A program made the translations under genes and the position numbers. Of a DNA stretch of 60,388 bases, positions 45,850 through 60,388 are shown piece after piece (within the stretch, counting starts at the first letter, position 1; each line of letters begins with the position of its first letter). The DNA comes from a virus. The notes beneath the pieces are model-generated. The model did no database searches. It saw only the letters and a program-made list of their open reading frames with translations, and was not told the origin of the DNA. The stretch is taken from positions 1 to 60,388 of the IMG/VR virus record IMGVR_UViG_3300045988_119780. One strand, given 5' to 3'.

Positions 45850-45852
45850 CTC

Positions 45853-46251
45853 CTACCACACTTCTTTATTTGGCTTAAATACTTCTGTCTTCTTGTCTGG
45901 CTTGATGTAGCGAATTTTCTTTTGAAGCTTCATACCCTTTTCACGGTGTAAGCGGTTATGACACTGCCGGCACACTGTGATTAGGTTGTCCATACTGAAA
46001 GCCTTGTATGAGTCATCTCCAGTTTTTCTGAGTGGTTCAATGTGGTGTACAGTATCGCCTAACGTATAGCGGCCCTCGGCCTTGCAAATCTGACATAGGT
46101 GCATGTCTCTTTGAAGTACCTGCTGTCTAATTGATCGCCAGGATGCTGAACGGTAGAACTCATTGTTGTTAGTCCCAAACCGTTCGCTCTTCTTTTCTTC
46201 CTTAGCGACCTGTTTGCCATTCCATACTTTAGGCTTCTTGTCCGAACTCAT
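45853..46251 (-). CDS. HNH endonuclease
   Basis: CQICKAEG...HHIEPL...CRQCHNRLH. The start is uncertain (the track ORF extends to 46305) and the gene overlaps the terS 3' end. Confidence 0.85.
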   Translation of the reverse strand: MSSDKKPKVWNGKQVAKEEKKSERFGTNNNEFYRSASWRSIRQQVLQRDMHLCQICKAEGRYTLGDTVHHIEPLRKTGDDSYKAFSMDNLITVCRQCHNRLHREKGMKLQKKIRYIKPDKKTEVFKPNKEVW

Positions 46252-46735
46252 CGAAATCATCGCCTTCCGCCAGTGCTTCCCTTTTAGCCTTGGATTGAAG
46301 GTCATCTTTTAAGTTCAAGGCCAGGCTGGTTCTTGACGTAGGCATAAGGCCTAGCTTATCTGCCAATTTGTCAAGCTCCGTGTTTAGTTTGATCTTTAGA
46401 GAAAGGAAACCAGAAGGATCGCCCTTCTCATTTGATCGGCCAGACTTTTTTAGTTCGTCATTACACTTCTTTAGCTCACTCATCATGTCAGCATAGCGGG
46501 CAATGGTGGTTACGTCAGCATTGTTGTATAGCGTAGTAGACTTGAATGTGTCCACAGTTTCTTTGAAAACTTTTTTGCCATAGGCATCTAACCATGTAGG
46601 AACTTTAGACAGCTTGTCATCATCAACAGCTAGCAGCCGTTCATTCTTGATGTTCTGTTTCAATTCCTTCTTGGTCTTGCGGTTTGGATTACCGTTTACC
46701 AAAGCTACTAGGCTTGACTGGATTCTCTGTGCCAT
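46229..46735 (-). CDS. terS: Terminase small subunit (P27-family-like)
   Basis: 168 aa. VPTWLDAYGKKVFKE...LGLMPTSRTSL pattern, upstream of terL. Confidence 0.6.
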   Translation of the reverse strand: MAQRIQSSLVALVNGNPNRKTKKELKQNIKNERLLAVDDDKLSKVPTWLDAYGKKVFKETVDTFKSTTLYNNADVTTIARYADMMSELKKCNDELKKSGRSNEKGDPSGFLSLKIKLNTELDKLADKLGLMPTSRTSLALNLKDDLQSKAKREALAEGDDFDEFGQEA

Positions 46736-46837: not shown

Positions 46838-48187
46838 TCAATTTTGTCTCATGAGAACGTTTGATAAAACTTCCTGGAAATGCTCAGCTGTTTCTGACCC
46901 AGCATGGTCTTCTTGCAAGCTAAGCAGGCGAGCATATTCTTTATGATCCGATAATTCTTTGATTGCGGTAATCATTCCTGCTGCATCCCCGGCCGCAAAA
47001 ATGTTTTCCGTTGCTACATACTCCGGTGAATGCAAAGCATCCTTGAAAGCCAAAATCAAAAGGCGATTTTCAAAGGCCTGCCGTCCGGCCTGCAAAATTT
47101 CATTAGCATAGTTGATATCCAAATAGAGGTCATCTTCTTCTAGCAAGCGGGCAACATCCTTTTTCCTGGCGACCGGATAGAGGGCCACGTTTTCATAATG
47201 CCCAAAGCTCATCAGCCGACTGGACATTTCCGTCACGGCAGCAATATCAAAGTGCCAGTCTGGCAAGCCTTCGACCAGCTGCTTGAGGCATTCAATATTG
47301 TCAGAATTGGTTAAGATTAAGGCTCGCTTTCTGGCTTGGCTTTCCCGCTTAAACGGGTAAACAATCCCCAGGTATTTGACCTTCTTAGCCATCTGACCGT
47401 TCAGTTGCCCAGTAATCTTCTTATATTCGCCCCTGTCTTGGACAATCACCCTGCTGCCTGGCAGATTATCTTGTAGAAGATACAGCATATTTTCCGGCAC
47501 GCTTCCTTGATTGTTTTCTTGCCAGAAAAGAATATTGTGGGACGGTTTCCTTTTTAACTGAATCAAGGTGAAAAGACAGTTACCCAGAGAATTAAAGATA
47601 ACTTCATCCAAGTTAAAGTCCGCTTCTTCCAGATAATAGGCCGTCAGCTGATTAATGTTCTTGAAGTTATAAATTTTCCCATTCGGCATATTGTAAGTAT
47701 AATCCCCAGTCAAATGGTTATGAATCAAAACTTCCTGGCCGTTGGAAGCAAAATAGCTAGTCATAGCCTGCCGACCGTTTTTGTCGCAGCTGGTTACTGC
47801 ATACTTCCATCCCCACTGGTTGTAGTGGTCAATCACCCGAACCTGTCCGGACTTATCTAGCCATTCAACCTGGCTAACCTGCCGAAGGTTGTTGCTTTTC
47901 CAGTAGCGGATATCGGCCCGCTTTTGCCCATGATCCAGGACTTCCCCGCCTTGCGAGTCTGCCTTGATTTCCCAAAACTTTGGCAGGTCAATTTCGTTAA
48001 AATAACGGGGACGACCTGCAAATTCAGACCCAGCTAAACGCAGGAAATACCTAAGGGGTGATTCGACACCATCTGGCAAAAAACCATTGTCTTGAATCAC
48101 CACACTGGGGTGCTGGTAGCCAGCCTGCTTCAGCGATCTCTCAAGGTCCTGGCTTTTTTGATTGTAATTGAAGAAAAGATTAATCAC
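46838..48187 (-). CDS. gtfB: GtfB-like partner/chaperone subunit of the GtfA-GtfB protein O-GlcNAc transferase
   Basis: 449 aa. N-terminus (M)INLFFNYNQKSQDLERSLKQAGY matches my memory of GtfB N-termini. GTG start overlaps the gtfA stop by 8 nt. Confidence 0.65.
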   Translation of the reverse strand: MINLFFNYNQKSQDLERSLKQAGYQHPSVVIQDNGFLPDGVESPLRYFLRLAGSEFAGRPRYFNEIDLPKFWEIKADSQGGEVLDHGQKRADIRYWKSNNLRQVSQVEWLDKSGQVRVIDHYNQWGWKYAVTSCDKNGRQAMTSYFASNGQEVLIHNHLTGDYTYNMPNGKIYNFKNINQLTAYYLEEADFNLDEVIFNSLGNCLFTLIQLKRKPSHNILFWQENNQGSVPENMLYLLQDNLPGSRVIVQDRGEYKKITGQLNGQMAKKVKYLGIVYPFKRESQARKRALILTNSDNIECLKQLVEGLPDWHFDIAAVTEMSSRLMSFGHYENVALYPVARKKDVARLLEEDDLYLDINYANEILQAGRQAFENRLLILAFKDALHSPEYVATENIFAAGDAAGMITAIKELSDHKEYARLLSLQEDHAGSETAEHFQEVLSNVLMRQN

Positions 48188-49685
48188 AGTGCAACTCGCT
48201 TTCTATAACCTCTTTCCATAGCTGGGCAACCTGCTTGGCATTATACTTGTCAGCTATTGCATAAGATTTCTCTGACATAACGGCTAAGTCTGATGAGAAA
48301 AGCTTGACAATCGCCTTGGACATTTCATCGATGTACTCTGACACGGTTGCTAATCGATCATATGGCAACAGCAAACCATTCCCCTTGTCAGCAATAAAGG
48401 TTTGGTTTCCATAGCGGACATCAAACCCGACCATAGCCAAGCCTGACCCCACTGCTTCCATCAAGGTAAGACCGAATCCTTCGCTGGTTGAACAAGTCAA
48501 ATAGGCTTGGTAGTGCTGGTAGATATTGTCCATCTGCTGGTGACCCTTTAAGCGAACATAGTCCACAGCTCCAACTTCCTTAATCAAGTCTTCCAGCATG
48601 GCCCGTTCTGAACCTGCTCCATAAATGTCCAAGCTAAGTTTCGGCAATGATTTCTTAGCTTTAGCCACAGCACGAATTGCCCAGTCCAAATGCTTCTCGC
48701 TAGCTAAGCGTGAGGCCGTCACCAGACTGAAAGGCTTGCGTGAGACGAAATCTGGCTTCTTCAATTCTTTTAAGCTGCCCACTGGAATTACATAAATCTG
48801 GGGCTTCTTACCCTTATACTTTAAGAACTGTTCTTCCATCAACTTTTTCTGCAAGTCAGTGGCCGTTACATAAAAGTCAATCTGGTCATCATGCTCGAAC
48901 GTATATTCATAGTAATTGTTCCAAAGGATGGTAGTGTCATTGGTCTCGGCTTCACTGAAGTGCTCAGCGTGAATAACCGTACCCACTTGTGCCTTACCAC
49001 GGTTTTCTAGAATTTCCTGGCCCTGGCCTCCAGCCCGGTCAATCAAGATAATGTCTTCTTTGGAAAAATTAAGTTCCTGCAGCATCTTGATTAAAAGCTC
49101 ATGCTTGGAGTACAGAATTTCATCTTTGAACTTGAAGACTTCTTGGTCACCATCGATGATTTCATCATAAGCGGCCGTTCCATCTTCATTGTAAAAGCGG
49201 CGCTGGTAAAGCTTGGCCCGATTGTTTTCTGGAGCGTAAAATTCGCTGCAGTAGCGACCATAACTATAGTAGTCTTTTCTGACCAAGTTAGCACCGGACA
49301 CGTATTCAACCCGATCAACGATGTCTGATTTCAAATCCTTCAAATAAGCCGTAGCCCAAAAGTCATTAGCAAAGATATAGCGAACCGCCTTGCCTAAGTG
49401 CTTACACTTTATAATTGGTGGTAGAACCTTTTCCAAGTCGCCCAAAGTAAAGCAGCCTGGCCGGATTTCAAAGTCAGTGAAAAAGGTATACAGCCAAATG
49501 ATCTCCTTGTCTTCGAAGCCCAGATTCCTGGTCAAGTGGGCAATGTTTTCATAGCCAATCCAATCAGTAAAAATGAACTTGGCCTTTACTCCCAATTTAC
49601 GAAAAATATGGCCCCGATATGCCTGTGCATATTCAACCCCACTAGAGGCCCAGCCGATTCCCTTGTTGATGCTGTAAACTGTCAT
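48180..49685 (-). CDS. gtfA: GtfA-like GT-B (GT4) glycosyltransferase of the accessory-Sec / protein O-glycosylation type
   Basis: N-terminus MTVYSINKGIGWASSGVEYAQAYR is characteristic of GtfA. GT4 motif CSTSEGFGLTLMEAVGSG. AGGTGA SD before the ATG at 49685. Confidence 0.75.
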   Translation of the reverse strand: MTVYSINKGIGWASSGVEYAQAYRGHIFRKLGVKAKFIFTDWIGYENIAHLTRNLGFEDKEIIWLYTFFTDFEIRPGCFTLGDLEKVLPPIIKCKHLGKAVRYIFANDFWATAYLKDLKSDIVDRVEYVSGANLVRKDYYSYGRYCSEFYAPENNRAKLYQRRFYNEDGTAAYDEIIDGDQEVFKFKDEILYSKHELLIKMLQELNFSKEDIILIDRAGGQGQEILENRGKAQVGTVIHAEHFSEAETNDTTILWNNYYEYTFEHDDQIDFYVTATDLQKKLMEEQFLKYKGKKPQIYVIPVGSLKELKKPDFVSRKPFSLVTASRLASEKHLDWAIRAVAKAKKSLPKLSLDIYGAGSERAMLEDLIKEVGAVDYVRLKGHQQMDNIYQHYQAYLTCSTSEGFGLTLMEAVGSGLAMVGFDVRYGNQTFIADKGNGLLLPYDRLATVSEYIDEMSKAIVKLFSSDLAVMSEKSYAIADKYNAKQVAQLWKEVIESELHCD

Positions 49686-49860
49686 GCTAATCACCTAGAT
49701 CGTTTTTAAAAGAGAAAACAAATTCGTCATTTGATTTACTTTTTATATTAACACCTTTGAGTGGCCCACTCGTTTCATTTTTTTCTCAATGGCCGGCCCT
49801 CCGAAGTCCACACTTTGATTAGGGTTTGGTATAGACCAATAGTCATTGAAAACTATGAAA

Positions 49861-50091
49861 ATGTGACTGAAAGAAAGGCTGTGTGACAGATGCGTCACAC
49901 TTACAGCCATAAGGGTTGTAAGCCATTTCATGTGACACTTGCAGGCCAAATTCCATATATAATATAGAATTCTTCTTCTTCTATATAGAGAAGTATAGAG
50001 AAAAACAGAGAATGCGTCACACTAAAGTGGCTTGAGCCTTACTCTCCAAAGGGCTGAGGGGCATGTGACACATCTGTCACGCCTGTCACGG
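49861..50091. repeat. GTGAC-palindrome element, copy B (paralogue of 16590..16820)
   Basis: GTGAC-N6-GTCAC at 49883-49898 and 50065-50080. Central TATATA..(CTT)3-TATATAGAG. Collinear conserved blocks with copy A, roughly 60 percent identity by eye. Confidence 0.7.
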
Positions 50092-50273
50092 GATGCAGCT
50101 GAGGCCAGGTGATTTTTCAAAAACGAAAATTAAGGTATCTCTGAGTCATTCACGTCATCGTGTGGATGATTGTCTTAAAATAAATCCAAAAAGCCTGTAC
50201 GGGGCTTAAAATCGATTCTAGGGCTATCTGAGCAATCACCTTCCCCACCCCGTGTGGAGATCCCTGCGGGATG

Positions 50274-50302
50274 TTGATTTTTGGTCAGTCATATGCTATA
50301 CT
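50274..50302 (+). promoter_or_regulatory. Sigma-70-type promoter (TTGATT, 17 nt spacer, TATACT with TG extension)
   Basis: Read directly from atgTTGATTtttggtcagtcatatgcTATACT. Confidence 0.55.
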
Positions 50303-50308
50303 ATGTGT

Positions 50309-50722
50309 AATATAAAGATTTAAAAATTAACACCGCAAGAATCAGCAGCCTGGGAAAAGTTTTCCTGGGCTGTCTTGCGTTTTGCCTGGATTGTGCTAGT
50401 ATGGAGATGAACGCAATAAGTTCGCTGAGGTAAGCGCACCCTGTATAGAAAACGGGGTGTATAGCAGACTTACCAAAAACGAATTTATTGCGTGTTCCCC
50501 CCTGGCGCCCGCTCCCCAGCACGGTAAAGGTAATTTTTACCTATAGGGGGGTACTTTACATATCTTTTATTATGTAAAGTTCACGGGTGCTTAACATATT
50601 CTTTATTATGTAAAGTAAATATTAATAGTATGCTATCGAATACTATATAACAGTAATAAGATAATAAACGTTATTTAATATAATACCATAAACAAAAAGC
50701 ACGCTTTTGAACGTGCTTTTTT
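50309..50722 (+). ncRNA. Candidate structured non-coding RNA of about 410 nt (unit R0)
   Basis: Runs promoter to terminator with no credible ORF. Long hairpin CGCAAGA..CAGCC/GGCTG..TCTTGCG, a possible C6/G6 long-range pair, and twin 10-bp hairpins at 50553-50616. Confidence 0.45.
50694..50722 (+). terminator. Intrinsic terminator (A-tract on the 5' side, so possibly bidirectional)
   Basis: aaaaagcacgcttttgaacgtgctttttt. Confidence 0.65.
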
Positions 50723-50780
50723 AGTTGCCTAAATTTTAGTGCTCAAACTTTAGCAGCCTAAACTTCACCGGGCAATAGAC

Positions 50781-50814
50781 AACAGCAGCAACAGCAGTAG
50801 CAACAGCAACAGCA
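50781..50814. repeat. CAG/CAA trinucleotide repeat tract
   Basis: aacagcagcaacagcagtagcaacagcaacagca in non-coding DNA. Confidence 0.85.
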
Positions 50815-50828
50815 CGCAAGGCGGCTTG

Positions 50829-51056
50829 CCTACCAGGTAGCGGCCGGGCAAGCTACCAGGCGCGGCCCGTGTGGTAGATATAGCGGCAAACATGGTAGAT
50901 AGCAGACTCTGCTACTTGCCTACTATAGCTAGACCATGCAAGCGGCCTTGTTCTCTATCGTGTCTAGCGTGCTATATAAGCGGTCTTGTGTGGTCTATGG
51001 TAAACGCTATAGAGTAGTAAGCTAACCGGGCTTATAGTGGCCTTTATAGCGTGCTA
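50829..51056. repeat. Cluster of short direct repeats (iteron-like)
   Basis: CTACCAGG x2 (50830, 50853), TGGTAGATA x2 (50872, 50893), TAGCGTGCTA x2 (50965, 51047) and many TATAG motifs. No ORF. Confidence 0.6.
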
Positions 51057-51104
51057 GCATGCAAGGCAGACCAGGTCAAGAAGTGAAGTACAAATAACCG
51101 CAAT

Positions 51105-51136
51105 AAAAAAGCCCTGACCTGGTAAAGGTCAAGGCT
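51105..51136 (-). terminator. Intrinsic terminator ending the 53349..51143 operon
   Basis: Minus strand GCCTTGACCTTTACCAGGTCAGGGCTTTTTT. Confidence 0.65.
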
Positions 51137-51142
51137 TGCGAT

Positions 51143-51550
51143 TCAGTCTAAGCAGTCATAGCCGGCGCGGTCTAGCATCTTTTTCGCTTGCTTGGTCGTA
51201 AGTGGTAAATCAAAGGCCGGCGAAGTCGGTTCGCTGCTAAATTCTTCGGTCGATACATACCGGCCTTTGACACCGTCAATATATAGCGCGCCGCCGTCAT
51301 TTAACCAGAAACTAAAACGGCTATAGCCGGCTGCCAAAGTGTCAAGGATAGCGGCCGCCCGCCGCCGGCGGCTAATATACCATACTAGCCCGCCGCCAAT
51401 GACGCCGCCTAAAAGAGCCGGCAAAAGCAGGGCCGCTTGGGCTTCAATTGGTCTTACATTACCAAGCAGCCAAAAGGTTCCCGGCCGCTTGGTAGCAATC
51501 CAAAACAAATTATTAAAGAAGTTAACAATATCTAACACAATATCCAACAT
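51143..51550 (-). CDS. Hypothetical single-pass membrane protein
   Basis: 135 aa with TM helix ALLLPALLGGVIGGGLVWYI followed by RRRR; GC-rich codons. Confidence 0.5.
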   Translation of the reverse strand: MLDIVLDIVNFFNNLFWIATKRPGTFWLLGNVRPIEAQAALLLPALLGGVIGGGLVWYISRRRRAAAILDTLAAGYSRFSFWLNDGGALYIDGVKGRYVSTEEFSSEPTSPAFDLPLTTKQAKKMLDRAGYDCLD

Positions 51551-51564
51551 AATTTTTTCCCCCT

Positions 51565-51645
51565 TTATTTATATAAGTAACCAGGATAGCGGCCGGCAAT
51601 AAAGCCAATTACTGAGAATAGAATAATGATAATTGCAATATCCAT
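51565..51645 (-). CDS. 26-aa hydrophobic peptide (MDIAIIIILFSVIGFIAGRYPGYLYK)
   Basis: My own translation. AGGGGG SD 7 nt upstream; tightly packed between flanking genes. Confidence 0.4.
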   Translation of the reverse strand: MDIAIIIILFSVIGFIAGRYPGYLYK

Positions 51646-51654
51646 AATAGCCCC

Positions 51655-52251
51655 CTATAAACTCAGGCCCCGGCATAGCGCTTTTTCTGCTTGCGTGGTA
51701 GCGCCGTAGGGCAAAACGGTAAAGTCTACCGGGTCTGTAGCTACATAGCAGACTGCCAAAGCTTCCGGGTCCTCCCCGTCAAGCAGAGCGGCTGCTTCTT
51801 GTATAGCTCCTTTTTCTTCCGGGTCTGTAGCTTTTGCCGCTTCTTCTTGATAGCACGCTAACCAGGCGGCAACGGTCATAGTATGACACTCATTTAAGCG
51901 GTCGAAGCGATCTACAATCGTTTGCGCTTCTTCTTCCCAATTTTCAACTAAGTTTGCTGCTACGGTATCACCAACGACAAACGCCAACCAAGCGAACATT
52001 TTTCCATAGTCTTCGCAATCCGTCGCGGCCGCGATCAGGTCCCGAACCGTTGCATCGTTTGATGTCCATTCGCCAAAGTTGTTGCTGTGTGATAGTACGC
52101 CGTTTTTTTGGTTGTCGGTCAAGTCGACACCTACCAGGTGCGCCCCGTCTAAGATGTCAAACATATTCACGCCAACGCCGGCCGGGTCGCAAAAGCCATC
52201 CCAAATGAATTCGCCAATTTCTCTTGCTACATAGCTTTCAAATTTAACCAT
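51655..52251 (-). CDS. Hypothetical highly acidic protein
   Basis: 198 aa. Shares the motif W..VVGDTVAANL with 55304..55807 (W..VGGDDTAANL). Confidence 0.5.
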   Translation of the reverse strand: MVKFESYVAREIGEFIWDGFCDPAGVGVNMFDILDGAHLVGVDLTDNQKNGVLSHSNNFGEWTSNDATVRDLIAAATDCEDYGKMFAWLAFVVGDTVAANLVENWEEEAQTIVDRFDRLNECHTMTVAAWLACYQEEAAKATDPEEKGAIQEAAALLDGEDPEALAVCYVATDPVDFTVLPYGATTQAEKALCRGLSL

Positions 52252-52266
52252 TTTTCTAATCCTCCT

Positions 52267-52581
52267 CTAAAAAACATATTCAAGAATGATATTATTAATA
52301 AAGTCATTCGCTTCTGCTGTTAGTTCGCGGCTTGTAGTCGGGAACCCGTTCCATGACGCCATAACCGCGCCATCTACTGTATCAACCCATACAGTGGGCC
52401 CGCCAGTCATGACTAGAATTTCCGCGCCGATAAAGTCGCCTTCTGAGTCTGTTTTAATTTCGACTTCTAAAGAGTCATGCAAGTAGTCAAGCAGGCCGCC
52501 CCGGTCGCAATTTTGGGCGAATTTTTCTAAGTCGTTTACAACTTCTTGTAAGTTTCTTTCAAAAGTTTCTTTTGCTTCCAT
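52267..52581 (-). CDS. Hypothetical acidic protein
   Basis: 104-aa ORF. Confidence 0.5.
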   Translation of the reverse strand: MEAKETFERNLQEVVNDLEKFAQNCDRGGLLDYLHDSLEVEIKTDSEGDFIGAEILVMTGGPTVWVDTVDGAVMASWNGFPTTSRELTAEANDFINNIILEYVF

Positions 52582-52596
52582 GATTATTTTTTCCTC

Positions 52597-53349
52597 CTAT
52601 GCTTCTTTTACTTTTTCGGTCTGGTTTACGCTGAAGAGTGTAACCAAGCGCAAGCCGTCAATTGCTTTCGTTCCATCTTCTTTTACTACCATACGCGGGG
52701 CAAGGATTTTTAAACCGTGCTGCCCCTTGGTTACCTGCCGGCCTTGCTTTAGCCAGCCCCGATAAGTAGACACTTGACCAAGGGCCGGGCCGCCTTGCAA
52801 GTATAAAAGCAGCTTGTTATCTTCGCTATACTTTTCAAACCGGGCCGCAAATTCGGCAGGTACGGCCCGACTTGCAAAAGCTTTGCCAGCATGAAGCAAG
52901 CTAGCAATTGTAATCTTGCCTTCTTTATCACTCACCAAGCCCGGCCCAAACTGAAGGCCGTTCGGCTGTACTGGCTTGTTTGCTTGCTTAGCTGGCTTCT
53001 TAGTAGTCTTTTTAGCAGCTGCCGGCTTTTTGGCGGTTTCCTTTACAGCAGCCGGCGCTGCTGTTTCTTCTTCTTCAATCAGCCCGGCGGCTTTTGTAAC
53101 GGCGGCGGCGCTTACGCTTTTGAAGTTTTCAGCGCCTAGCATGTCGTCGGTTAAGGTGATAGTTTTGTTAGCCGTATCGATCACGATATAAGCCCGGCCC
53201 GCTGCTCTACTTGACTTAAAAAAGCCTTTAGTCTTTTGCGGGTCAACTTTAGCGACGTAAAGTGATTCGCTTAATTCGAACCATTTTTCCGAAAGTTCGA
53301 TTGCCTTTTCTGCTTGATTGTAATCAACTTGCTTTGGTTTAGTAGTCAT
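52597..53349 (-). CDS. Hypothetical protein: N-domain, Lys/Ala/Pro-rich linker, C-domain faintly ArdC-N/ssDNA-binding-like
   Basis: Linker AKKPAAAKKTTKKPAKQANKP. C-terminal STYRGWLKQGRQVTKGQHGLKILAP recalls the ArdC N-terminal domain, from memory only. Confidence 0.5.
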   Translation of the reverse strand: MTTKPKQVDYNQAEKAIELSEKWFELSESLYVAKVDPQKTKGFFKSSRAAGRAYIVIDTANKTITLTDDMLGAENFKSVSAAAVTKAAGLIEEEETAAPAAVKETAKKPAAAKKTTKKPAKQANKPVQPNGLQFGPGLVSDKEGKITIASLLHAGKAFASRAVPAEFAARFEKYSEDNKLLLYLQGGPALGQVSTYRGWLKQGRQVTKGQHGLKILAPRMVVKEDGTKAIDGLRLVTLFSVNQTEKVKEA

Positions 53350-53373
53350 TTTAAAAAGCCCCTTTCTAGGCTT

Positions 53374-53422
53374 GACCTAAAAGGAGCTTTACTGTACTAT
53401 AGTAGTACAGTCCTTTTAGGTC
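53374..53422 (-). promoter_or_regulatory. 49-nt near-perfect nested hairpin in the 5' leader of 53349..52597
   Basis: Outer stem GACCTAAAAGGA/TCCTTTTAGGTC (12 bp) and inner stem CTGTACTA/TAGTACAG (8 bp). Confidence 0.6.
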
Positions 53423-53497
53423 TGTAATAAATTCTGTAGCTCACGGGGCCAGGTTCCAAATTGCCCCCGTGGGCTTTTTCTATTGTTTACACTCTTA

Positions 53498-53525
53498 ATT
53501 ATACTCATTACCGCCGGTAACGCAA
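53498..53525 (-). promoter_or_regulatory. Candidate promoter TTGCGT, 16 nt spacer, TATAAT
   Basis: Minus strand TTGCGTTACCGGCGGTAATGAGTATAAT. Confidence 0.4.
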
Positions 53526-53528
53526 ACC

Positions 53529-53753
53529 TTAATTAAAAGTTTTTTTATTTTTTTCTAGCAGTTGTTTATGTCTTTCAGCCGCCAGTTGGCGAATTTCGCC
53601 AAGCTCTTTAATGCTTGCATGTAGTCTTATATAGCTTTTTACTGAACTGTATTTTCTACTATGTAGCTCTTTAGCTGCCTTTTTGGGATCGGCTTTTAAG
53701 CGCGCCCGATACTCTCTCATATAAGCGGCCCTTTTGGCTTTTTTGTCGGTCAA
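53529..53753 (-). CDS. Small basic helical protein (74 aa); paralogue of 55871..56047
   Basis: TTG start 6 nt after AAGGAGGTG. Sequence (M)TDKKAKRAAYMREYRARLKADPKKAAKELHSRKYSSVKSYI.. Confidence 0.5.
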   Translation of the reverse strand: MTDKKAKRAAYMREYRARLKADPKKAAKELHSRKYSSVKSYIRLHASIKELGEIRQLAAERHKQLLEKNKKTFN

Positions 53754-54307
53754 GGCCTTCACCTCCTTTTTTATAGGATACTTAATACTAACATCTAACC
53801 ATTGGTAACGCAACCCCCTGGCAAGACTTTTTTTAAAAAAGTTTTTGGCGCTACATCAAGCCCCGGCCCGCCTGGCTTGCTGGTGATCAAAAAAGGCGTG
53901 GTAAAAAGGAAGTAGGGCCAAAAGTAGCAGGATCCAAAAAGGACCACTAAAAAAGCCTCCCGCCCCCGGCCAAAAGCCCCCTTCTTTTCGCGCGCTTGAT
54001 CAAAAGGCCGGCCGGCTTTGGCTGCTTCCTGCTAGCAAATAAAAAAGGCGGGCAAAAACATATATAAGGAAGAAACACGATTTTTTTTATTTTTTCTTCC
54101 TTATATAGCCCCGGCTGCCGGGGCGTCAAAAAGCGAAACTATATTTTTTTAGATTTCGTATAGTGAAAGCACTTACATTAAAATTACATTAAAACATCCT
54201 TAGAATAAAATTAATGAATGCTAAAAATATAATTATAGCTCTAAGTCTGACCGATTTTTACCTTTTTTCTTTTCGCCTTAGGAAGATTTGCTGTACAACT
54301 GGGGTGA

Positions 54308-54323
54308 TTTTTTTTTTTTTTTT
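54308..54323. repeat. T16 homopolymer tract
   Basis: ggggtga followed by 16 T, then attccg. Confidence 0.9.
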
Positions 54324-54368
54324 ATTCCGCAGTCGGCCGGTCAGTCAGCTGATTGGTTGGTCGGCTGA

Positions 54369-54398
54369 TTGATCGTTTAGTTTAGATTGTGGTATACT
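54369..54398 (+). promoter_or_regulatory. Promoter TTGATC, 18 nt spacer, TATACT (TG-extended)
   Basis: gaTTGATCgtttagtttagattgtggTATACT. Confidence 0.5.
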
Positions 54399-54404
54399 AG
54401 ATAT

Positions 54405-54697
54405 ACAAGCCGTTCACGCTTTGTGTGATTGTATGGCACGCCAATTGATTTGATAGGATTAATCTGTTGCCTGGTAAGCCCATGCCTTCATGCAGCGGAC
54501 CCCGAACGGTATTTTATATAAAGAGCACTGGAACCTATCAGCCAGGTGCTCTTACTACGTGCCGTTTAGCGGCTTGCAGACTACCCAGCTGGTTCACGGG
54601 CAGAGATTCCTATGGAGCTTTGGTGTTACATAGGCCGGGCCAGTGTCGGGACTGTCTGCTTTAGTACTCGTTGACACCAAACAGCGAGTACTTTTTT
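54405..54697 (+). ncRNA. Candidate structured ncRNA of about 290 nt (unit R1)
   Basis: Promoter to terminator. Hairpins AGAGCACTGG..CCAGGTGCTCT and CCTATG..CATAGG, and a GGCACG/CGTGCC long-range pair. The only ORF has a TTG start and no SD. Confidence 0.5.
54663..54697 (+). terminator. Intrinsic terminator of R1
   Basis: AGTACTCG..CGAGTACT stem followed by TTTTT. Confidence 0.7.
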
Positions 54698-54699
54698 AT

Positions 54700-54728
54700 T
54701 TGCCAATCAAGACCAGGTGTGGTAGAGT
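54700..54728 (+). promoter_or_regulatory. Promoter TTGCCA, 17 nt spacer, TAGAGT (TG-extended)
   Basis: tTTGCCAatcaagaccaggtgtggTAGAGT. It shares TGTGGTA.A.TAGAT with the R1 promoter. Confidence 0.5.
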
Positions 54729-54734
54729 AGATGT

Positions 54735-54873
54735 CGGAAGTCGTAAGCTAGCACGGCTTCCCATCCAGTATTTGGTGAATTGCTCTCCCCAAGTGCACTA
54801 AAGAGAGAGCAAACATTCATACAGTGCAAAAAGACAGTCAGCATTCTTTCCTCAACCGCTGACTGTCTTTTTT
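54735..54873 (+). ncRNA. Candidate small RNA of about 140 nt (unit R2)
   Basis: Three hairpins: GGAAGTCG/CGGCTTCC, TTGCTCTC/GAGAGCAA, and the terminator. Confidence 0.5.
54832..54873 (+). terminator. Intrinsic terminator of R2
   Basis: AGACAGTCAGC..GCTGACTGTCT (11 bp) followed by TTTTT. Confidence 0.75.
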
Positions 54874-55054
54874 GTGTTATGTATTTCCGTGTGGATATAG
54901 CCGCTCAGCACGCCACAGAATCAATTTTAAGCCGTTTCAGTATAGACCATAGGTAAACCCCTACCACAGGCTTACTTAAAACGCCTCACATGCCGTATTA
55001 TGGCTGTCTGACGGGCAATCACTGTGTTTCGGCTGCATGGATAGATCGTGTGTC

Positions 55055-55300
55055 ACCTTCCCCAGTATATTAATTATCACACTCCCCAGTCTAACTTCAC
55101 TACCATTAATCACCCCCAGTCAACAATCGGCTGCCAAAAAACGCCCCCAGTCAAAATTCAGTCCTAAAAAAAACACCCCCCAGTCAATTTTTAGCCCCAG
55201 AAAAATCACCCCCCAGGCTTTTTTTGAACTCAGAAAAAACACCCCCTAAGCTTTTTTAAAGCATAAAAAAATAGCCCCCCAAGCTTTTTTGGGGAGCTAT
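55055..55300. repeat. Array of about 8 direct repeats with 31-33 bp period (A-tract, CACCCCCCAG, T-tract)
   Basis: C-tract starts at 55060, 55084, 55113, 55144, 55176, 55209, 55242 and 55275. The last five units are well conserved. Confidence 0.8.
55264..55300 (-). terminator. Intrinsic terminator of 55807..55304 (formed by the last repeat unit)
   Basis: Minus strand ATAGCTCCCCAAAAAAGCTTGGGGGGCTATTTTTTT. Confidence 0.65.
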
Positions 55301-55303
55301 CGA

Positions 55304-55807
55304 TTATTTACTTAACAAGTTAGCAGCAGTATCGTCACCGCCTACCCAGTCTGTCCAGCGAACCAGCTTATCGTAGTCCACACTTTCAATAGCACGTACA
55401 ACTTGGTCCATAATTTCATCATACAGTCCAGTGTGGCTATCTGCGCCTTCATTGTATTGGCGAACATATTCCTTGATTTGATCGTCAGTAATCTTCAGCC
55501 CGGCAAATTCACGAGCACCAGTCAGCACGGCTGCCAGATCGGCACCTACTTGTTCCGGATAATCCAAAGCGTTGTCCAGGTAATCTTCTAGTGGTTCACG
55601 GTCCGGAACTTCTTCCAGATCGTAGTCATCGATAAAGCCCTGGTCCTGGGCTGCTTTCAACAAGGAAGGCACTGAGCTGTCGTCAATGTCTTCCCAGTCA
55701 GCAAGATCACCAGTCACCAGATCAGCCTCGCTAATTGCCTGCCAAAGCTTTTCAGCTGATTCAAATTCACCTAAATCGTCGTGATTTACCTTTACGTTGT
55801 ATAACAT
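55304..55807 (-). CDS. Hypothetical highly acidic protein
   Basis: 167 aa, D/E-rich (DLADWEDIDDSS, DDYDLEEVPDREPLEDYLD). C-terminal motif shared with 51655..52251. Confidence 0.55.
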   Translation of the reverse strand: MLYNVKVNHDDLGEFESAEKLWQAISEADLVTGDLADWEDIDDSSVPSLLKAAQDQGFIDDYDLEEVPDREPLEDYLDNALDYPEQVGADLAAVLTGAREFAGLKITDDQIKEYVRQYNEGADSHTGLYDEIMDQVVRAIESVDYDKLVRWTDWVGGDDTAANLLSK

Positions 55808-55870
55808 TTTAGTTTTCCTCCTTTACGCTCTCTATTATGCACCTTGACAAGTACATTGCAAGGAAAAGTT

Positions 55871-56047
55871 CTACTTTTTTTCTTGCTTTTCCTTGATACG
55901 TTTTACCAGGTCTCTGAGGTCGTCATCATTGGCTAGATCGCTAATGAACTTTCTAGCCTTTGATCGATATTGCAGGTAACGCATTTCTTCTTTATGAGCT
56001 TCATTCCATTTTTGGTTAGCCCTTTTTCTTGCTTCGGTAATTGCCAT
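55871..56047 (-). CDS. Small basic helical protein (58 aa); paralogue of 53529..53753
   Basis: My own translation is MAITEARKRANQKWNEAHKEEMRYLQYRSKARKFISDLANDDDLRDLVKRIKEKQEKK. AAGGAGGG SD. Confidence 0.45.
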   Translation of the reverse strand: MAITEARKRANQKWNEAHKEEMRYLQYRSKARKFISDLANDDDLRDLVKRIKEKQEKK

Positions 56048-56179
56048 GTGTTGCCCTCCTTTTTTACACTATAGTACACTTGGCAAAGCAAAAGGTCAAC
56101 GCCCCAGTGTGGCAATTAAAAGGCCCTCAGCATTAATTATGCCGAAGGCGGTTATAATAAGTTAACACTAACTCTAAAA

Positions 56180-56359
56180 TCAGCCAAGCCATCTGACCAG
56201 CACTCCAATAATCACCAGTGGCCAACCAACAAATTCGCCTAAAATCAGTGTGGCTGTAGCAATTTCAACGCCATGTCTTGGCAAGATAGCCACTTCAGCT
56301 AAAGACAAAGCAGGACTAAACAGCCCAGCTAATAGCCCTACCCAAAAAATAATTGGCAT
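56180..56359 (-). CDS. Small two-helix membrane protein (59 aa)
   Basis: My own translation is MPIIFWVGLLAGLFSPALSLAEVAILPRHGVEIATATLILGEFVGWPLVIIGVLVRWLG. GGGAGA SD. Confidence 0.4.
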   Translation of the reverse strand: MPIIFWVGLLAGLFSPALSLAEVAILPRHGVEIATATLILGEFVGWPLVIIGVLVRWLG

Positions 56360-56376
56360 AAATTTATCTCCCTAAC

Positions 56377-56446
56377 AAAAAAGCCGGCTATACCCGGCTA
56401 TAGTGACCCGCTCAAACCTTACGGTTGTCATCGCTTGAGTATAGCA
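56377..56446 (-). ncRNA. Possible very short transcript (about 55 nt) between an extended -10 and a terminator
   Basis: TGCTATACT at 56438-56446. Terminator AGCCGG..CCGGCT followed by TTTTTT at 56377-56399. Confidence 0.3.
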
Positions 56447-56563
56447 TCCCTACTCCGCAGTAGAGCGCTATGCAAGGGTCTAAGACTGTAGTGCAGTTCC
56501 ACCCGCACTATAGCCGAAGTCATGTAGTGACCCACAATGACTCGTCAAATGACACTTTAATTA

Positions 56564-57007
56564 CTAGATTGGCAAATGTAGCTCTTTAGCTACATCAAAA
56601 ATAAAATCATTCCATTTCCTGTAGCCGTCTGCACGGCTTACAAGGACTTTTCCTTGCATTACTAAATCAGAAATGGTGTGTGCATTTCTCAGTCTTGACG
56701 GTTTGAAATACAGTTCTTTGCAGATTGTCTGTACTTCGTCTGGTGCCTCTTCAAAACAAGTCCGGATTGCCATGTGCTCTTGTCTTAATGCGTTCAGCCG
56801 CTTGTCTTCATCAAGCGTTACAATCCATCGTTCTTGATAAGGTGTGTTGCTGCTAGATCGACCCCCACCCACATTGTCGTCCGGCTCTACATATGGGTGC
56901 TGGAGTTCAAATCTCCGTTGCTCTACGTATTCGTCATAGTGTGGATAGTCTTCAAGCAAAGATTCAATATAGCGCTTAGCGTTTCGTTCGCGTTTTCTAA
57001 TGGACAC
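56564..57007 (-). CDS. RinA-family-like phage transcriptional activator
   Basis: 147 aa. YIESLLEDYPHYDEYVEQRRFELQHPYVEPDDNVGGGRSS is typical of RinA-type late activators, from memory. Confidence 0.45.
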   Translation of the reverse strand: MSIRKRERNAKRYIESLLEDYPHYDEYVEQRRFELQHPYVEPDDNVGGGRSSSNTPYQERWIVTLDEDKRLNALRQEHMAIRTCFEEAPDEVQTICKELYFKPSRLRNAHTISDLVMQGKVLVSRADGYRKWNDFIFDVAKELHLPI

Positions 57008-58284: not shown

Positions 58285-58305
58285 GACTGCTCCTTAAACG
58301 AAAAT

Positions 58306-58353
58306 AACCATTGTCTGGAATCGAACCAGACTTAAAGTCCTAACTTAATGGTT
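58306..58353 (-). ncRNA. tRNA-like minihelix 1 (7-bp acceptor-like stem plus canonical T-arm; no D or anticodon arms)
   Basis: Minus strand AACCATT-AAGTTAGGACTTTAAG-TCTGG-TTCGATT-CCAGA-C-AATGGTT. Confidence 0.5.
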
Positions 58354-58521
58354 TGTAGAAATGCAGGCTGATTTGTGTTACGAAAAACGTGGTTAAAATA
58401 ACGCCCCTTAGCTGCAGACGTAATTAATAAATCAACCTCTTAGCTATACCACACTCAGTCGGCAGAATGTGATACGGCTGTGCCCCGCTAAGCGTTAGCT
58501 ATCACGGCAGGGCTAAGGCAA

Positions 58522-58542
58522 GCTGGGGAGTCGAACCCCAGC
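58522..58542 (-). ncRNA. Isolated tRNA T-arm-like hairpin
   Basis: Minus strand GCTGGGG-TTCGACT-CCCCAGC. I found no matching acceptor strand. Confidence 0.4.
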
Positions 58543-58631
58543 TCACTGTGCGAAAGAGAATAGTAAAATAAAAATGCTGTTATCTATAGCTTTAGGTGAG
58601 GTAGAATGCCCAGCTGGAGGAAGCTGGGCTA

Positions 58632-58675
58632 AGTTGTGCGCTGGAATCGAACCAGCTTTCAACCGAAACACAACT
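58632..58675 (-). ncRNA. tRNA-like minihelix 3 (acceptor-like stem plus T-arm)
   Basis: Minus strand AGTTGTG-TTTCGGTTGAAA-GCTGG-TTCGATT-CCAGC-G-CACAACT, followed by hairpin GCCCAGCT..AGCTGGGC (58608-58629). Confidence 0.5.
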
Positions 58676-58734
58676 GCAATAAAAAATAATGAGATCTAGT
58701 ACTAAATTTAAATTACAGTTTACAATTTGCTGCC

Positions 58735-59022
58735 CACGGCTTTCCATACCGATCACAGCAATGCACGACCTGGGGCTTGCACCCAGCGGCTCTCTATGGT
58801 GTCGTGTCACCGATTTAGAAAGGATTTTCACTACAATCAACTACCCCCGACCGAGGTCGGAGGTTTGCAACTAGCTAGCGTGGTCCAAGCAAACTCCCCG
58901 AGGGGAGTTCTCCCATAGCCAAGCCCGAAGGCTTACGCTGTCGCTTCTCAAGCATCCTTGGCGAACCTCAGATGCTCCCGCAGGCTGACTACTACGGCAG
59001 AACAGCACGTTTACGCACTGCT
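58735..59022 (-). ncRNA. Candidate TnpB omega-RNA (reRNA) scaffold / IS right end
   Basis: At least 6 GC-rich hairpins directly 3' of the tnpB stop: GCATC..GATGC, AAGCC-TTCG-GGCTT, AACTCCCC-TCGG-GGGAGTT, CCGACC-TCG-GTCGG, and CACGAC..CTGGG..CCCAG..GTCGTG. AT-rich DNA and a T-run follow. The 5' limit probably lies inside the ORF. Confidence 0.6.
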
Positions 59023-60303
59023 CTAATTTGTTTGTTTCTTTGTTTTCTTGCCTTTGGCTTTCTTAGCATCTGTTGTATCATGCTGACTCTGATACGACGG
59101 ATTAGGCACGCCGCTGACGTACATCGTTCCCAGCATTTGAATGTTCATTGCGGCTATGCGGTCGTCATTAGAGCGGTAGCCGCATCTGTTACAGATATAC
59201 ATGTGCAGCTCATGGTCACGATTTTCTTTCAAAATCTGCCCACACTTAGGACAGCGCTGACTGGTATAGTGAGCGTCTACCTCGACAACCTCGCTGCCAT
59301 TCTGATGTGCCTTGTACTTGAGCTTTTGTTCCAGGTCATAGAAAGACCAGGAATGGTGCTCATATCTATTTTCCTTCTTACGGCTATAGACCGTATCAAA
59401 AGTTACGTCAGTAAGATCCTCAAGCACAAAGAGAGTATCAGCTCCGTAGTGGTTGACGAGTGTCTTAGACAAGCAGTGATTGTAGTCGCTCATCCAGCGG
59501 TTCTCTCGTTGACCAATCTTGCGAATGCGTCTCTTTGAGTTTCTGGTATTTGTCATCTGCAGATGACGTCTCAGCTCTTTATAGTGCTGACGCTTTCTGG
59601 CAATCGTCTTCCCGTTGTGGAAGAAAGTTTTGCCTTTTTCGTCATAGCAGGTAACGATCTGGCGAAGTCCTCTGTCAACCCCAACTACATGACGAGTCTG
59701 CTCAATCTCGTAATCTGGAAAAGACTTGGTTGCGCTGATATGCATAAACCAGTGCTTGCCAGATCTAAGGATTTTGGCAGTGCCAAAAGTCCATTCGTCA
59801 TCCAGATATTTTTCAAAGCCTGGCATGGCAATTTCGCATTCAATCCGCCCGTTAAGGGTATTGACAGACACGATCTTGCCATTCTGCTTGAAGGAATAAT
59901 CCCGATCTCTTACTTCATCCAATTGCGGACGCTTGAAAAAAATCGGCTCCCAAAGCCAGTCAAGATCACGTTGGACAGTGTAGTAGCCCTTGTCTTTCGG
60001 TGCATTGATGTCGTGAAATTTATAAGGCTTCTGACCAAGCTGCGTTTTAACAGACTTGTATCTGGCGATAACGGTCTTCAAGACAGACTGAGCCATTTGT
60101 GATCTGAGGTTGAATTTTTGTCGTAAGTCAGAGTAGACAGCTTTGTTCAGCTTTGCTTGGCCGAGTTCAAAGTCATGCTCAAAAATGTATTCAGATGCAA
60201 AATTACAACCTTGTCTATAAGCTTCCATGCTGTCTATCAGTGATTTAGCATTTTCGGAACTGGCAACTTTGATGTGAGCTTTAATAGTCAAAGAAATATC
60301 CAT
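59023..60303 (-). CDS. tnpB: TnpB RNA-guided endonuclease (IS200/IS605 family)
   Basis: RuvC triad contexts VGVDRG, FVLEDL and SNDDRIAAMNI. Zinc finger CPKCG...CNRCG. Start at MDISLTIK with a GAAGGGAGG SD. Confidence 0.9.
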   Translation of the reverse strand: MDISLTIKAHIKVASSENAKSLIDSMEAYRQGCNFASEYIFEHDFELGQAKLNKAVYSDLRQKFNLRSQMAQSVLKTVIARYKSVKTQLGQKPYKFHDINAPKDKGYYTVQRDLDWLWEPIFFKRPQLDEVRDRDYSFKQNGKIVSVNTLNGRIECEIAMPGFEKYLDDEWTFGTAKILRSGKHWFMHISATKSFPDYEIEQTRHVVGVDRGLRQIVTCYDEKGKTFFHNGKTIARKRQHYKELRRHLQMTNTRNSKRRIRKIGQRENRWMSDYNHCLSKTLVNHYGADTLFVLEDLTDVTFDTVYSRKKENRYEHHSWSFYDLEQKLKYKAHQNGSEVVEVDAHYTSQRCPKCGQILKENRDHELHMYICNRCGYRSNDDRIAAMNIQMLGTMYVSGVPNPSYQSQHDTTDAKKAKGKKTKKQTN

Positions 60304-60327
60304 GATTTGCCTCCCTTCACTAAAAAT

Positions 60328-60336
60328 AGCATACCA
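60328..60336 (-). promoter_or_regulatory. Extended -10 TGGTATGCT upstream of tnpB
   Basis: Minus strand TTTTTGTGGTATGCTATTTTTAGTGAAGGGAGG. Confidence 0.4.
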
Positions 60337-60388
60337 CAAAAACTAGTGATATAGGAGGCTAGACTACCGAATATCTAACAATCAGAAA

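Follow-up and report, generated by a model that had tools for sequence, protein, structure and literature searches.

Sequence comparison identifies the 6869-nt stretch at positions 49695-56563 of a 60,388-nt viral record (IMG/VR IMGVR_UViG_3300045988_119780; the whole record is called the window below) as the conserved arm around the cohesive-end site, cos, of a temperate, cos-packaging Lactobacillus delbrueckii siphophage akin to Lactobacillus phage JCL1032, and not as a foreign island. We are nearly certain of the position of cos and of the synteny of the arm among related phages, and with moderate confidence we favour the overall picture of a cos-proximal accessory and regulatory arm which carries new phage small RNAs. 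The region as such is already in GenBank within JCL1032, as hypothetical open reading frames (ORFs), and accessory arms flanking cos are ordinary. What is new concerns the small RNAs, named R1 and R2 (and probably also R3 and an RNA of the cos block), which appear to be structured non-coding RNA families absent from Rfam and restricted to this phage lineage. New also is the placing of an RNA and repeat hub between a RinA-type activator gene and cos. In the JCL1032 literature, we found nothing on the region corresponding to the stretch.

The cos site and the conserved arm

JCL1032 (NC_019456), whose host is L. delbrueckii subsp. lactis, was the sole match to the stretch in INPHARED, covering 53% of it at 88% identity. 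Window positions 49717-50511 correspond to JCL1032 1-797 at 92.7% identity, and 50514-56563 to its right end at 74-94% identity. Position 1 of the JCL1032 record falls on 50511 and its last base on 50512, where the two record ends abut, and its positions 1-10, annotated as 'cos site', are window 50511-50502. From this annotation and the end alignments, the 10-nt cohesive end is CTGGCGCCCG (plus strand) at 50502-50511. On the same alignments, the stretch unites both ends of a JCL1032-type genome, the right one at 50512-56563 and the left one at 49695-50511. The site is upstream of terminase genes accompanied by an HNH gene (Terminase_4 at 46229-46735, HNH at 45853-46305, TerL at 44488-44973 and 42942-44282), an arrangement that is alike beside the cos region of the relatives. 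An earlier note on this DNA had proposed a foreign island and had overlooked the organising fact that the stretch straddles cos; with both physical ends of JCL1032 joined in it, and with its synteny in relatives, the stretch is instead a conserved feature of the lineage.

The window is scaffold_338 of ENA ERZ28577934 rotated by 4,154 nt. The join of the record ends falls between 56234 and 56235, within a 59-aa hydrophobic ORF of the stretch. JCL1032 has no alignment over 56116-56313, and the related loci of five relatives align unbroken through the join, which indicates that the whole phage genome was assembled here and that the circularity of the contig is genuine. Its gene content includes an integrase, a D5/NrS-1-type primase-helicase (6054-8408), Terminase_4, HNH, a split TerL and a TnpB-type ORF.

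For comparison within the lineage, we used the contigs of relatives of the 167-aa acidic protein described below, including two L. delbrueckii genome assemblies (loci L124-L143). About a dozen related L. delbrueckii phages and prophages share the gene-poor layout. On the activator side, the common order is a DUF722/RinA regulator, then small ORFs to which many loci add a C5 methylase, then the 58-aa basic and the acidic protein, and 1.4-2.0 kb without a called gene. On the cos side, it continues with a 74-aa basic protein, ArdcN, variable small ORFs, 1.4-1.8 kb without a called gene, and Terminase_4 (terS), HNH and TerL. Since all fetched relatives share this order, we read the stretch as an arm that is poor in genes and conserved, in which only the cargo varies, rather than as an insert of foreign origin. 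Nucleotide conservation among the relatives is concentrated in discrete blocks.

Eight credible ORFs, all on the minus strand, occupy 3219 of the 6869 nt (47%), in agreement with the earlier note, which had put the stretch at about half coding; elsewhere, the value is about 94%. When all ORFs of ≥50 aa were filled in greedily, the coding fraction was 0.69 in the stretch versus 0.94 in the rest of the window. The true share of the stretch is probably lower than 47%, as one ORF is called at 94 aa here and at 74-75 aa in relatives, and its start is probably a TTG near 53750, after AAGGAGGTGA. We attribute the low coding density to three components, namely the cos block with its palindromic spacer, the confinement of the cargo to two short cassettes, and a non-coding hub of about 1.5 kb. 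The earlier note had itself named conserved small proteins in the ORF-free parts as the outcome that would overturn its view; among ORFs of ≥25 aa in the large ORF-free blocks, none kept its full-length frame open in the majority of 10 related loci.

Predicted RNA units, the cos block and repeats

Predicted transcription signals are dense in the stretch, with 22 terminator-like hairpins versus 8.1 ± 2.7 in shuffles. The motif TRTGnTAnAnT occurs four times on the plus strand of the window, and three of these sites are in the stretch (50292, 54388 and 54718), each with an intrinsic terminator after it, which bears out the ORF-free, plus-strand promoter-to-terminator units reported earlier. The last two sites belong to R1 and R2, whose structure and strand, counter to all neighbouring genes, are supported by comparison of the related sequences, as are their conserved promoters and terminators. 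These two predicted units are quite likely to be real RNAs.

R1 (54369-54698, plus strand) is the best supported of the RNA units. Its extended -10, TGTGGTATAMT (54388-54398), is invariant and its -35 region variable, and a predicted RNA of about 295 nt (54403-54698) ends at a terminator at 54663-54692. Indels of 25-30, 9 and 5 nt in the 5' half rule out coding, and the 24-mer CTATGGAGCTTTGGTGTTACATAG is invariant in all copies. RNAalifold, run on 11 distinct sequences, gave 58 pairs with 96.7% of cells paired, compared with 31-49% in slid controls, and 11 pairs showed compensatory double changes versus 6.8 ± 1.4 in shuffles (0/500). About 17% of the paired cells are G-U, that is, A-C mismatches on the opposite strand, and the fold z was -4.20 on the plus and -1.33 on the minus strand. 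The invariant loop UUUGGUGU (within 54609-54632) is exactly complementary to the invariant terminator loop ACACCAAA, which suggests a tertiary contact between the two; as both loops are invariant, covariation is uninformative here. Exact 20- and 24-mers of R1 were found only in JCL1032 and one metagenome contig.

R2 (54700-54880, plus strand) follows directly. Its promoter (TTGCCA-17-TGgTAGAGT, 54700-54728) would drive an RNA of about 145 nt (54733-54878) with a terminator at 54828-54872. Both the -35 TTGCCA and the extended -10 TGgTAGAGT are invariant in nine loci, and the spacer between them is constant in length and variable in sequence, which is a classic promoter signature. The fold has 25 pairs, 3 of them compensatory, with z of -6.05 on the plus and -4.74 on the minus strand, and the terminator contains, in most relatives, two G-U pairs that the minus strand would turn into mismatches. 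R3 (54826-55057, minus strand), a candidate non-coding RNA or leader, converges with R2 on a shared bidirectional terminator. It has 29 pairs with 95.7% paired and 6 compensatory pairs versus 2.1 in shuffles (3/500), and its G-U pairs favour the minus strand. No conserved ORF was found in R3, where ATG-led frames run 6 to 22 codons and differ among relatives. Support for R2, R3 and the cos block is weaker than for R1.

Beyond R3 is an array of six to seven 33-nt units on the minus strand (55064-55290; 55084-55290 as a direct repeat), each with an A-run, GCTTA or TTGACT, G5-6 TG(A/T) and a T-run. Its first unit is the 3' half of the terminator of cassette A (see below), and its last units overlap a weak promoter, TAGACT-18-TATACT (55093-55064). 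Arrays of 3-7 units, with G5-6 TG(A/T) T5-8 as their common core, occur in all relatives; in the window, the units are 75-81% alike and the conserved core is only about 15 nt. We tentatively regard the array as a platform for an activator, a reading we hold to be possible and well short of probable. A search of IMG/VR with the loose repeat pattern gave chance matches only. The idea that the units mimic a host CRISPR repeat through a shared GGGGGTGAT was considered and dropped.

Two observations on relatives concern these units. In JCL1032, ORF69, ORF70 and ORF71 (L001 2888-3435) overlie the R1, R2 and array region, and none of their frames is conserved among relatives; they are probably mis-annotated non-coding RNA genes. 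In the L. delbrueckii prophage of GCA_021135475.1 (L131), a deletion at 9247-9293 has taken away the 5' half of R1 with its promoter, the spacer, the whole 74-aa basic gene and the larger part of the ArdC-N gene, implying either that the lost elements are dispensable for prophage maintenance or that the prophage is decaying.

Around cos itself, positions 50297-50751 are kept at 74-83% in relatives, with unrelated sequence on both sides. The block opens with R0a (50274-50385, plus strand), which has a promoter with a TG extension (TTGATT-17-TATACT, 50274-50302) and a conserved hairpin followed by UUUU (50328-50378). Its fold z was -5.14 on the plus and -3.12 on the minus strand, and the U-G and G-U pairs of the stem are valid on the plus strand only. 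The cos block proper, or candidate RNA R0b (50404-50724, plus strand), is preceded at about 50386-50397 by an extended -10, TGTGCTAGTAT in the window and TGTGCTAGAAT in relatives. It comprises a nested domain with a 13-bp stem (50411-50493) that carries GC-to-AU compensatory changes, AT-rich repeats (50549-50616, a palindromic 36-nt unit present twice) and a bidirectional, covarying terminator at 50694-50721. The cohesive end is embedded in a stem, CCCCCUG / UAGGGGG, and the hairpin adjacent to cos is swapped for unrelated hairpins in two relatives (L141 and L140). In total, the block has 37 pairs with 95% paired and 7 compensatory pairs versus 3.0 in shuffles (2/500).

Further repeats and palindromes were found on both sides of the block. 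CAACAGCAG is repeated 4.3 times at 50780-50819 and a 14-nt unit three times at 50719-50762, and a T16 tract lies at 54308-54323; the direct-repeat arrays and the T16 tract of the earlier note are where it had placed them. Positions 50880-51108 form a conserved non-coding block with an extended -10-like site, GTGCTATATAA, on the plus strand near 50966; this block was tried as a structured RNA and rejected on its unfavourable covariation term. The spacer between cassette B and R1 (53814-54368), partially deleted in JCL1032, has an AT-rich part with the T16 tract (54130-54330) and a cluster of GC-rich palindromes (53850-54130), each followed by T- or A-runs, and contains many GGCCGG-type hexamers.

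Between cos and the packaging genes, TGTGAC-N6-GTCACA palindromes (49883 and 50065) and half-sites at 49881-50090 are candidate operator or packaging-recognition sites, and they flank a minus-strand promoter-like element, GTGACG-17-TATACT (50020-49992). The motif has 6 matches in the window versus 1.1 expected, a count reached by none of 100 shuffles. Such palindromes near cos are common to the window, JCL1032 and L131, and two other relatives (L124 and L133) have GTGTGGTCA/TGACCACAC there instead. TerS and the RinA-like regulator were each considered as the reader of the GTGTGACA / GTGTGGTCA motifs and rejected: both proteins are 89-98% identical across the motif groups, and neither therefore accounts for the motif swap. 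A perfect GTGAC-N6-GTCAC palindrome with an overlapping one-mismatch copy also occurs at 16601-16627, within an ORF-free gap of 242 nt close to the tail/lysis end of the late genes, which hints at one regulator acting at both places.

Cassettes, activator border and neighbouring genes

The coding part of the arm is organised in two minus-strand cassettes. Cassette A (55270-56099) has a promoter-like site (TTGACC-17-TACTAT, 56099-56071), a basic 58-aa protein (55871-56047), an acidic 167-aa protein (55304-55807) and a terminator at 55301-55270. Cassette B (51109-53835) starts from a duplicated promoter-like element (TTGCGTTACC with TAGTAT / TATAAT, at about 53813 and 53525) and ends at a terminator at 51137-51109; it encodes a basic protein of 74/94 aa (53529-53813), an ArdC-N protein of 250 aa (52597-53349), acidic proteins of 104 aa (52267-52581) and 198 aa (51655-52251), and a 135-aa protein with one transmembrane segment (51143-51550). 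The three acidic proteins have a pI of 4.05 and net charges of -25, -15 and -30, and the two large ones share a domain at 30% identity (E 3e-8). The basic proteins (pI 9.9 and 10.3) both match phrog_2277, and BLASTP gave no alignment between them. The protein content that the earlier note had described, namely acidic proteins with a common motif, an ArdC-N-like protein, two small basic proteins and small membrane peptides, was confirmed, the last in the form of the hydrophobic 59-mer.

The 167-aa acidic protein consists of two domains, and its AF2 model has a pLDDT of 88. Its family has 43 relatives with 64-100% identity (90% clustering), and a profile search of 1.84 billion representatives found its two domains occurring separately in only about 35 clusters (50%), all unannotated small proteins. 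Searches of IMG/VR and of the GTDB species representatives returned JCL1032 itself or nothing. The ArdC-N protein matches PF08401 at residues 166-236 (E 1.8e-7, 31.8 bits versus a cut-off of 22.6). All of its 51 relatives are from L. delbrueckii phages or prophages, 49 of the 51 carry PF08401, and some are named 'ArdC family' by NCBI. Its N-terminal domain is modelled confidently, and the protein gave no sequence match in PDB and no fold match.

At the other border of the arm lies the RinA-family late activator gene (56564-57007), which matches TIGR01636 phage_rinA at 70.6 bits versus a cut-off of 31.9, as well as phrog_36 and phrog_2198; its relatives carry PF05263. Three GTCAYT direct repeats on the minus strand (56526-56553; AGTGAC, AATGAC and AATGAC on the plus strand), seen by eye and spaced 10 and 12 nt, begin 11 nt past the stop of this gene. 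Ltr/RinA proteins bind short direct repeats directly distal to their own gene (PMC3753634), and by analogy, we infer that the GTCAYT repeats are candidate activator-binding sites. They are followed on the minus strand by a candidate late promoter with a leader terminator (56382-56446), in which an extended -10, TGCTATACT (56446-56438), precedes by about 40 nt a hairpin with a T-run (56399-56382). This block is highly conserved in relatives and lies ahead of the gene for the 59-aa hydrophobic peptide (56180-56359, minus strand, GRAVY 1.46).

Several genes in and around the arm vary within the lineage. A C5 cytosine DNA methylase (PF00145) is found between the late activator and the 58-aa basic gene in L142, L128, L133, L136, L138, L141, L143 and L124; the copy in L142 (4740-5789, 349 aa) is intact, several of the others are truncated or split, and the window and JCL1032 have none. 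Between the cos region and terS, the window has a GtfA-like gene (504 aa; GtfA_EBD and Glycos_transf_1) and a GtfB-like gene (449 aa; GtfB_M) at 46838-49694, at the position of two tiny ORFs in JCL1032 and L131. The pair adds 3 kb between cos and the packaging genes in this phage and, as an O-GlcNAc transferase pair of the accessory-Sec type, is unusual phage cargo. The packaging module (42942-46735) comprises terS, HNH, a Dam-like D12 N6-adenine methylase (44974-45849) and TerL. TerL is split (44488-44973 and 42942-44282) by a 205-nt gap, and the JCL1032 annotation likewise joins terL from two pieces. This suggests an intron, although none of the group I intron models of Rfam matched. In the region 58285-60339, a TnpB-type ORF (Cas12f1-like_TNB and OrfB_IS605, 438 aa, 59023-60339, minus strand) is absent in JCL1032, whose homology restarts at 58840; a further 235 nt (58357-58590) is also absent there. 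Positions 58841-59022 are likely, given this position, to be an omega-RNA or the right end of the TnpB element, and Rfam gave no match to them.

Weighing of the readings and known systems

Several points weigh against a regulatory arm with new RNAs. The comparative set is small, 7-11 sequences from one phage lineage, and related sequences can outscore shuffles without any structure, a caveat of the tool. All transcripts described here are predictions, and when the phage itself was searched for targets of R0-R3 through 11-mers, either shared or complementary, the matches did not exceed chance level. The fold z of R3 is similar on both strands (-2.85 and -2.78), DNA inverted repeats fit equally, and the minus-strand promoter 3' of the array is poorly conserved in sequence; we regard the chances that R3 is a real RNA as evenly divided. 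The cos block likewise folds alike on both strands (z -6.1 and -6.0), and palindromes at the DNA level therefore account for the data as well as RNA does. Inverted repeats for recognition by the terminase would be an equally good explanation of most of the block, and the case for a transcript across cos, which we consider possible at somewhat less than an even chance, is limited to the G-U pairs and to the promoter-like elements that are conserved there. For the proteins, no ArdC metalloprotease domain was found; the protein stops at residue 250 after ArdcN, Pfam finds no further domain, and the model is poor in the ArdcN part. For the modelled 167-aa acidic protein, fold searches of PDB and BFVD gave no relative except the JCL1032 orthologue, which leaves a role as DNA mimic neither supported nor excluded. 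Finally, the roughly 10-fold enrichment in GGCCGG-type hexamers has no explanation.

This enrichment bears on the reading of the stretch as a recently acquired, compositionally foreign mobile island, which we consider very improbable. In the stretch, GGCCGG, CCGGCC, GCCGGC and CGGCCG exceed their density per kb elsewhere in the window about 10- to 30-fold, as had been noticed earlier for the first two, and the tetranucleotide profile of the window deviates only at 49.5-55.5 kb (z up to 4.0); gene content, moreover, differs between relatives. The hexamers are similarly enriched in the equivalent arms of JCL1032, L124, L131 and L133 (2.5-4.9 versus 0-0.57 per kb in the flanks), and the enrichment extends to cargo genes which are non-homologous between relatives. 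Overall GC, however, is equal to that of the rest of the genome (0.446 versus 0.442, the 61st percentile of equal-sized windows), contrary to the claim of a GC-richer stretch. Higher GC is limited to 51.1-53.3 kb (0.476), and non-coding sequence alone shifts k-mer profiles. The stretch is syntenic in JCL1032 and every fetched relative, holds essential cis elements (cos and the late-promoter region), contains no integrase, transposase or flanking repeat, and has no match beyond this phage lineage. Synteny has thus largely refuted the island. The proposal of a phage-plasmid or copy-control module found no support: the stretch had no megablast match among 72,556 PLSDB plasmids; an integrase and a D5-type primase-helicase lie elsewhere in the window; and the relatives are integrated prophages. 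Models for Rep, Par, Cas, toxin and defence proteins from Pfam, PHROGs, PADLOC and NCBIfam matched no ORF of the stretch, as the earlier note had stated for rep, par, cas and toxin genes. Its suggestion that the ORF-free units belong to GOLLD, ROOL or another described large RNA family drew on context only, a Lactobacillales phage with large ORF-free units, and is now hardly credible. Across the whole window, cmscan with all 4227 families of Rfam 15 gave no match at the gathering score and, at E<=10 in 49.0-60.4 kb, only noise of at most 21 bits, which refutes the assignment at the sensitivity of Infernal; the units are also of 145-300 nt versus 600-800 nt for those families. What survives is the idea of sizeable RNAs in these parts, as R1 and R2 are conserved, strand-specific and covarying.

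Two readings have more in their favour. The stretch may be chiefly an anti-defence island, with acidic DNA mimics, an ArdC-N protein shielding single-stranded DNA (ssDNA) or DNA ends, the C5 methylase of relatives, and RNAs or the array acting as decoys, for example as a pseudo-antitoxin against ToxIN or AbiQ. The ArdcN domain, acidic net charges of -15 to -30, the C5 methylase at the same locus in relatives, and cargo that varies between relatives as arms-race genes would are all in keeping with it. ToxI and antiQ units are 35-36 nt long, close to the period of the array, and, by analogy with lambda, the genome end that is packaged last would be injected first. Against it, no anti-defence family other than ArdcN was found by PADLOC, PHROGs or Pfam (PADLOC and NCBIfam returned RinA for the flanking regulator and otherwise nothing), and the confident acidic model matches neither an Ocr/ArdA-like nor any other fold. 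The array is unlike antitoxin repeats, with units alike only in a short core and no evident promoter, and PADLOC matches no type III toxin-antitoxin system. Decoy RNAs are without support, and the cos block, R1 and R2 would be left unexplained. As an account of the whole stretch, we rate this reading as rather unlikely. An anti-defence role for the proteins themselves is plausible, and a counter-restriction role is suggested by ArdcN, the C5 methylase of relatives and the Dam-like methylase in the packaging module.

The main rival is that the hub at 53.8-55.3 kb is a replication origin, in which the 33-nt units would be iterons, DNA would unwind at the T16 and AT-rich tract, and a transcript, R1 alone or together with R2 and R3, would prime or activate initiation as proposed for PE1-T. 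This is the defensible core of the replication module suggested earlier. Repeats in the same orientation with a conserved core, in 3-7 copies in every relative, do adjoin an AT-rich region with T16, and strong predicted promoters drive structured non-coding transcripts. The primase-helicase module (6054-8408) has no sizeable non-coding gap of its own, and ORF-free, promoter-flanked regions of c2-type phages serve as origins, from which plasmids replicate in the absence of phage proteins (PMC7150918). On the other hand, Pfam, PHROGs and NCBIfam show no adjacent initiator gene, and there is no plasmid similarity. The flanks of the units vary and only the G-tract and T-run core is kept; the overlap of the first unit with a terminator and of the last units with a promoter-like site would sooner be expected of a transcriptional element; R1 lacks its 5' half and promoter in prophage L131; and cumulative GC skew has no inflection at the hub. 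Taken together, these points make an origin unlikely.

For the favoured picture of a cos-proximal regulatory arm, we propose the following mechanism. The arm lies between the RinA-family late activator and the packaging genes and would, in the virion, be split at 50502-50511 into the right and left ends. Conserved and highly self-complementary sequence of about 450 nt, which would serve packaging recognition, surrounds cos and gives way to a spacer with palindromic motifs for protein binding. The two cassettes, each with its own promoter and terminator, are both headed by a small basic protein and carry acidic proteins, and cassette B also encodes an ArdC-N ssDNA-binding protein; together with the C5 methylase of relatives, this cargo may serve counter-restriction or host takeover. 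The GTCAYT repeats and the extended -10 at 56446-56438 could form an activator-dependent late promoter after the paradigm of Ltr (PMC3753634). Within the hub of about 1.5 kb, the array may be a platform for a phage regulator that feeds the R3 promoter; Alt, for comparison, recognises a repeat series from -76 to -32 (PMC3152322). R3 would run from its weak minus-strand promoter and converge on R2 and R1, which have TRTG-extended -10 promoters on the plus strand. R2/R3, R1 and the stacked terminators may insulate and time transcription from the early/late-activator side towards cos and the packaging genes, and R1, given its size, compact fold and invariant loops, could act in trans or bind a protein. 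In a bolder version, which we consider decidedly unlikely, the cos block is transcribed from about 50386-50397 as a plus-strand RNA of about 310 nt that crosses the nick site, counter to packaging, up to 50694-50721, and forms with R1 and R2/R3 an RNA-based control layer at the early-to-late/packaging boundary of a dairy phage lineage. Because the promoter and the terminator of R0b lie on opposite ends of the virion DNA, a full-length RNA could be made only after the cohesive ends are joined, in circular, concatemeric or prophage DNA. If true, such an RNA would have built into it a means to report or regulate either the circularisation of the genome or the access of terminase to cos.

At least two small RNAs outside Rfam thus appear to be conserved in L. 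delbrueckii phages relevant to dairy starter cultures. If they control late transcription, packaging or replication, they would offer handles on how phages develop in cheese and yoghurt starters, and perhaps on ways to block this development; if the hub is instead a transcript-dependent origin, the c2 paradigm would reach temperate Lactobacillus phages. Cos-adjacent phage sequence labelled hypothetical or non-coding is usually ignored, and here no other part of the genome appears as heavily regulated. Where a phage genome that was assembled as a circle shows a gene-poor, repeat-rich 'island', the packaging site is worth checking first.

Compared with known systems, the arm is closest to JCL1032, with the same gene order, 74-94% identity, the 10-nt cos, and nearly identical R1, R2, R3 and 33-nt array; it differs in that the region is annotated there as 13 hypothetical proteins and in that the window adds GtfA/GtfB and other cargo at 51.1-52.6 kb. 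As in the Ltr/RinA/ArpU and Alt systems, a RinA-family gene lies upstream of the packaging genes, candidate short repeats are distal to it and a longer repeat series abuts a promoter-like site. In the phages studied, however, the activator adjoins terS, whereas here 6-10 kb of cargo, RNAs and cos intervene, and Ltr and Alt sites are far shorter than the 33-nt array (about 230 bp). The origin of lactococcal c2-type phages (Ceduovirus), with its transcript PE1-T (PMC7150918), is likewise an ORF-free, promoter-bounded region of a dairy phage with a predicted structured non-coding transcript; it has no sequence similarity to the hub, sits between divergent early and late clusters, and lacks a counterpart of the array and of the convergent RNA pair. 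The predicted R2 and R3 resemble par(pAD1)/Fst as convergent short transcripts with a common bidirectional terminator, and they differ from it in that neither has a conserved small hydrophobic ORF. The C-terminal 70-85 residues of the ArdC-N protein match the N-terminal ssDNA-binding domain of ArdC (PF08401), but the protein is phage- rather than plasmid-encoded, has no metalloprotease domain, and carries instead an unrelated N-terminal domain and a Lys/Ala-rich linker. With lambda (cosQ-cosN-cosB and the PR'-tR' 6S leader), the arm shares a nick site that lies upstream of the small terminase gene and has conserved sequence for recognition on either side, and a late-region start at which a promoter is closely followed by a terminator. 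Unlike in lambda, the block here is much larger, with nested inverted repeats that show compensatory changes, conserved plus-strand promoter-like elements are directed across cos counter to packaging, and the activator is of the RinA type rather than the antiterminator Q.

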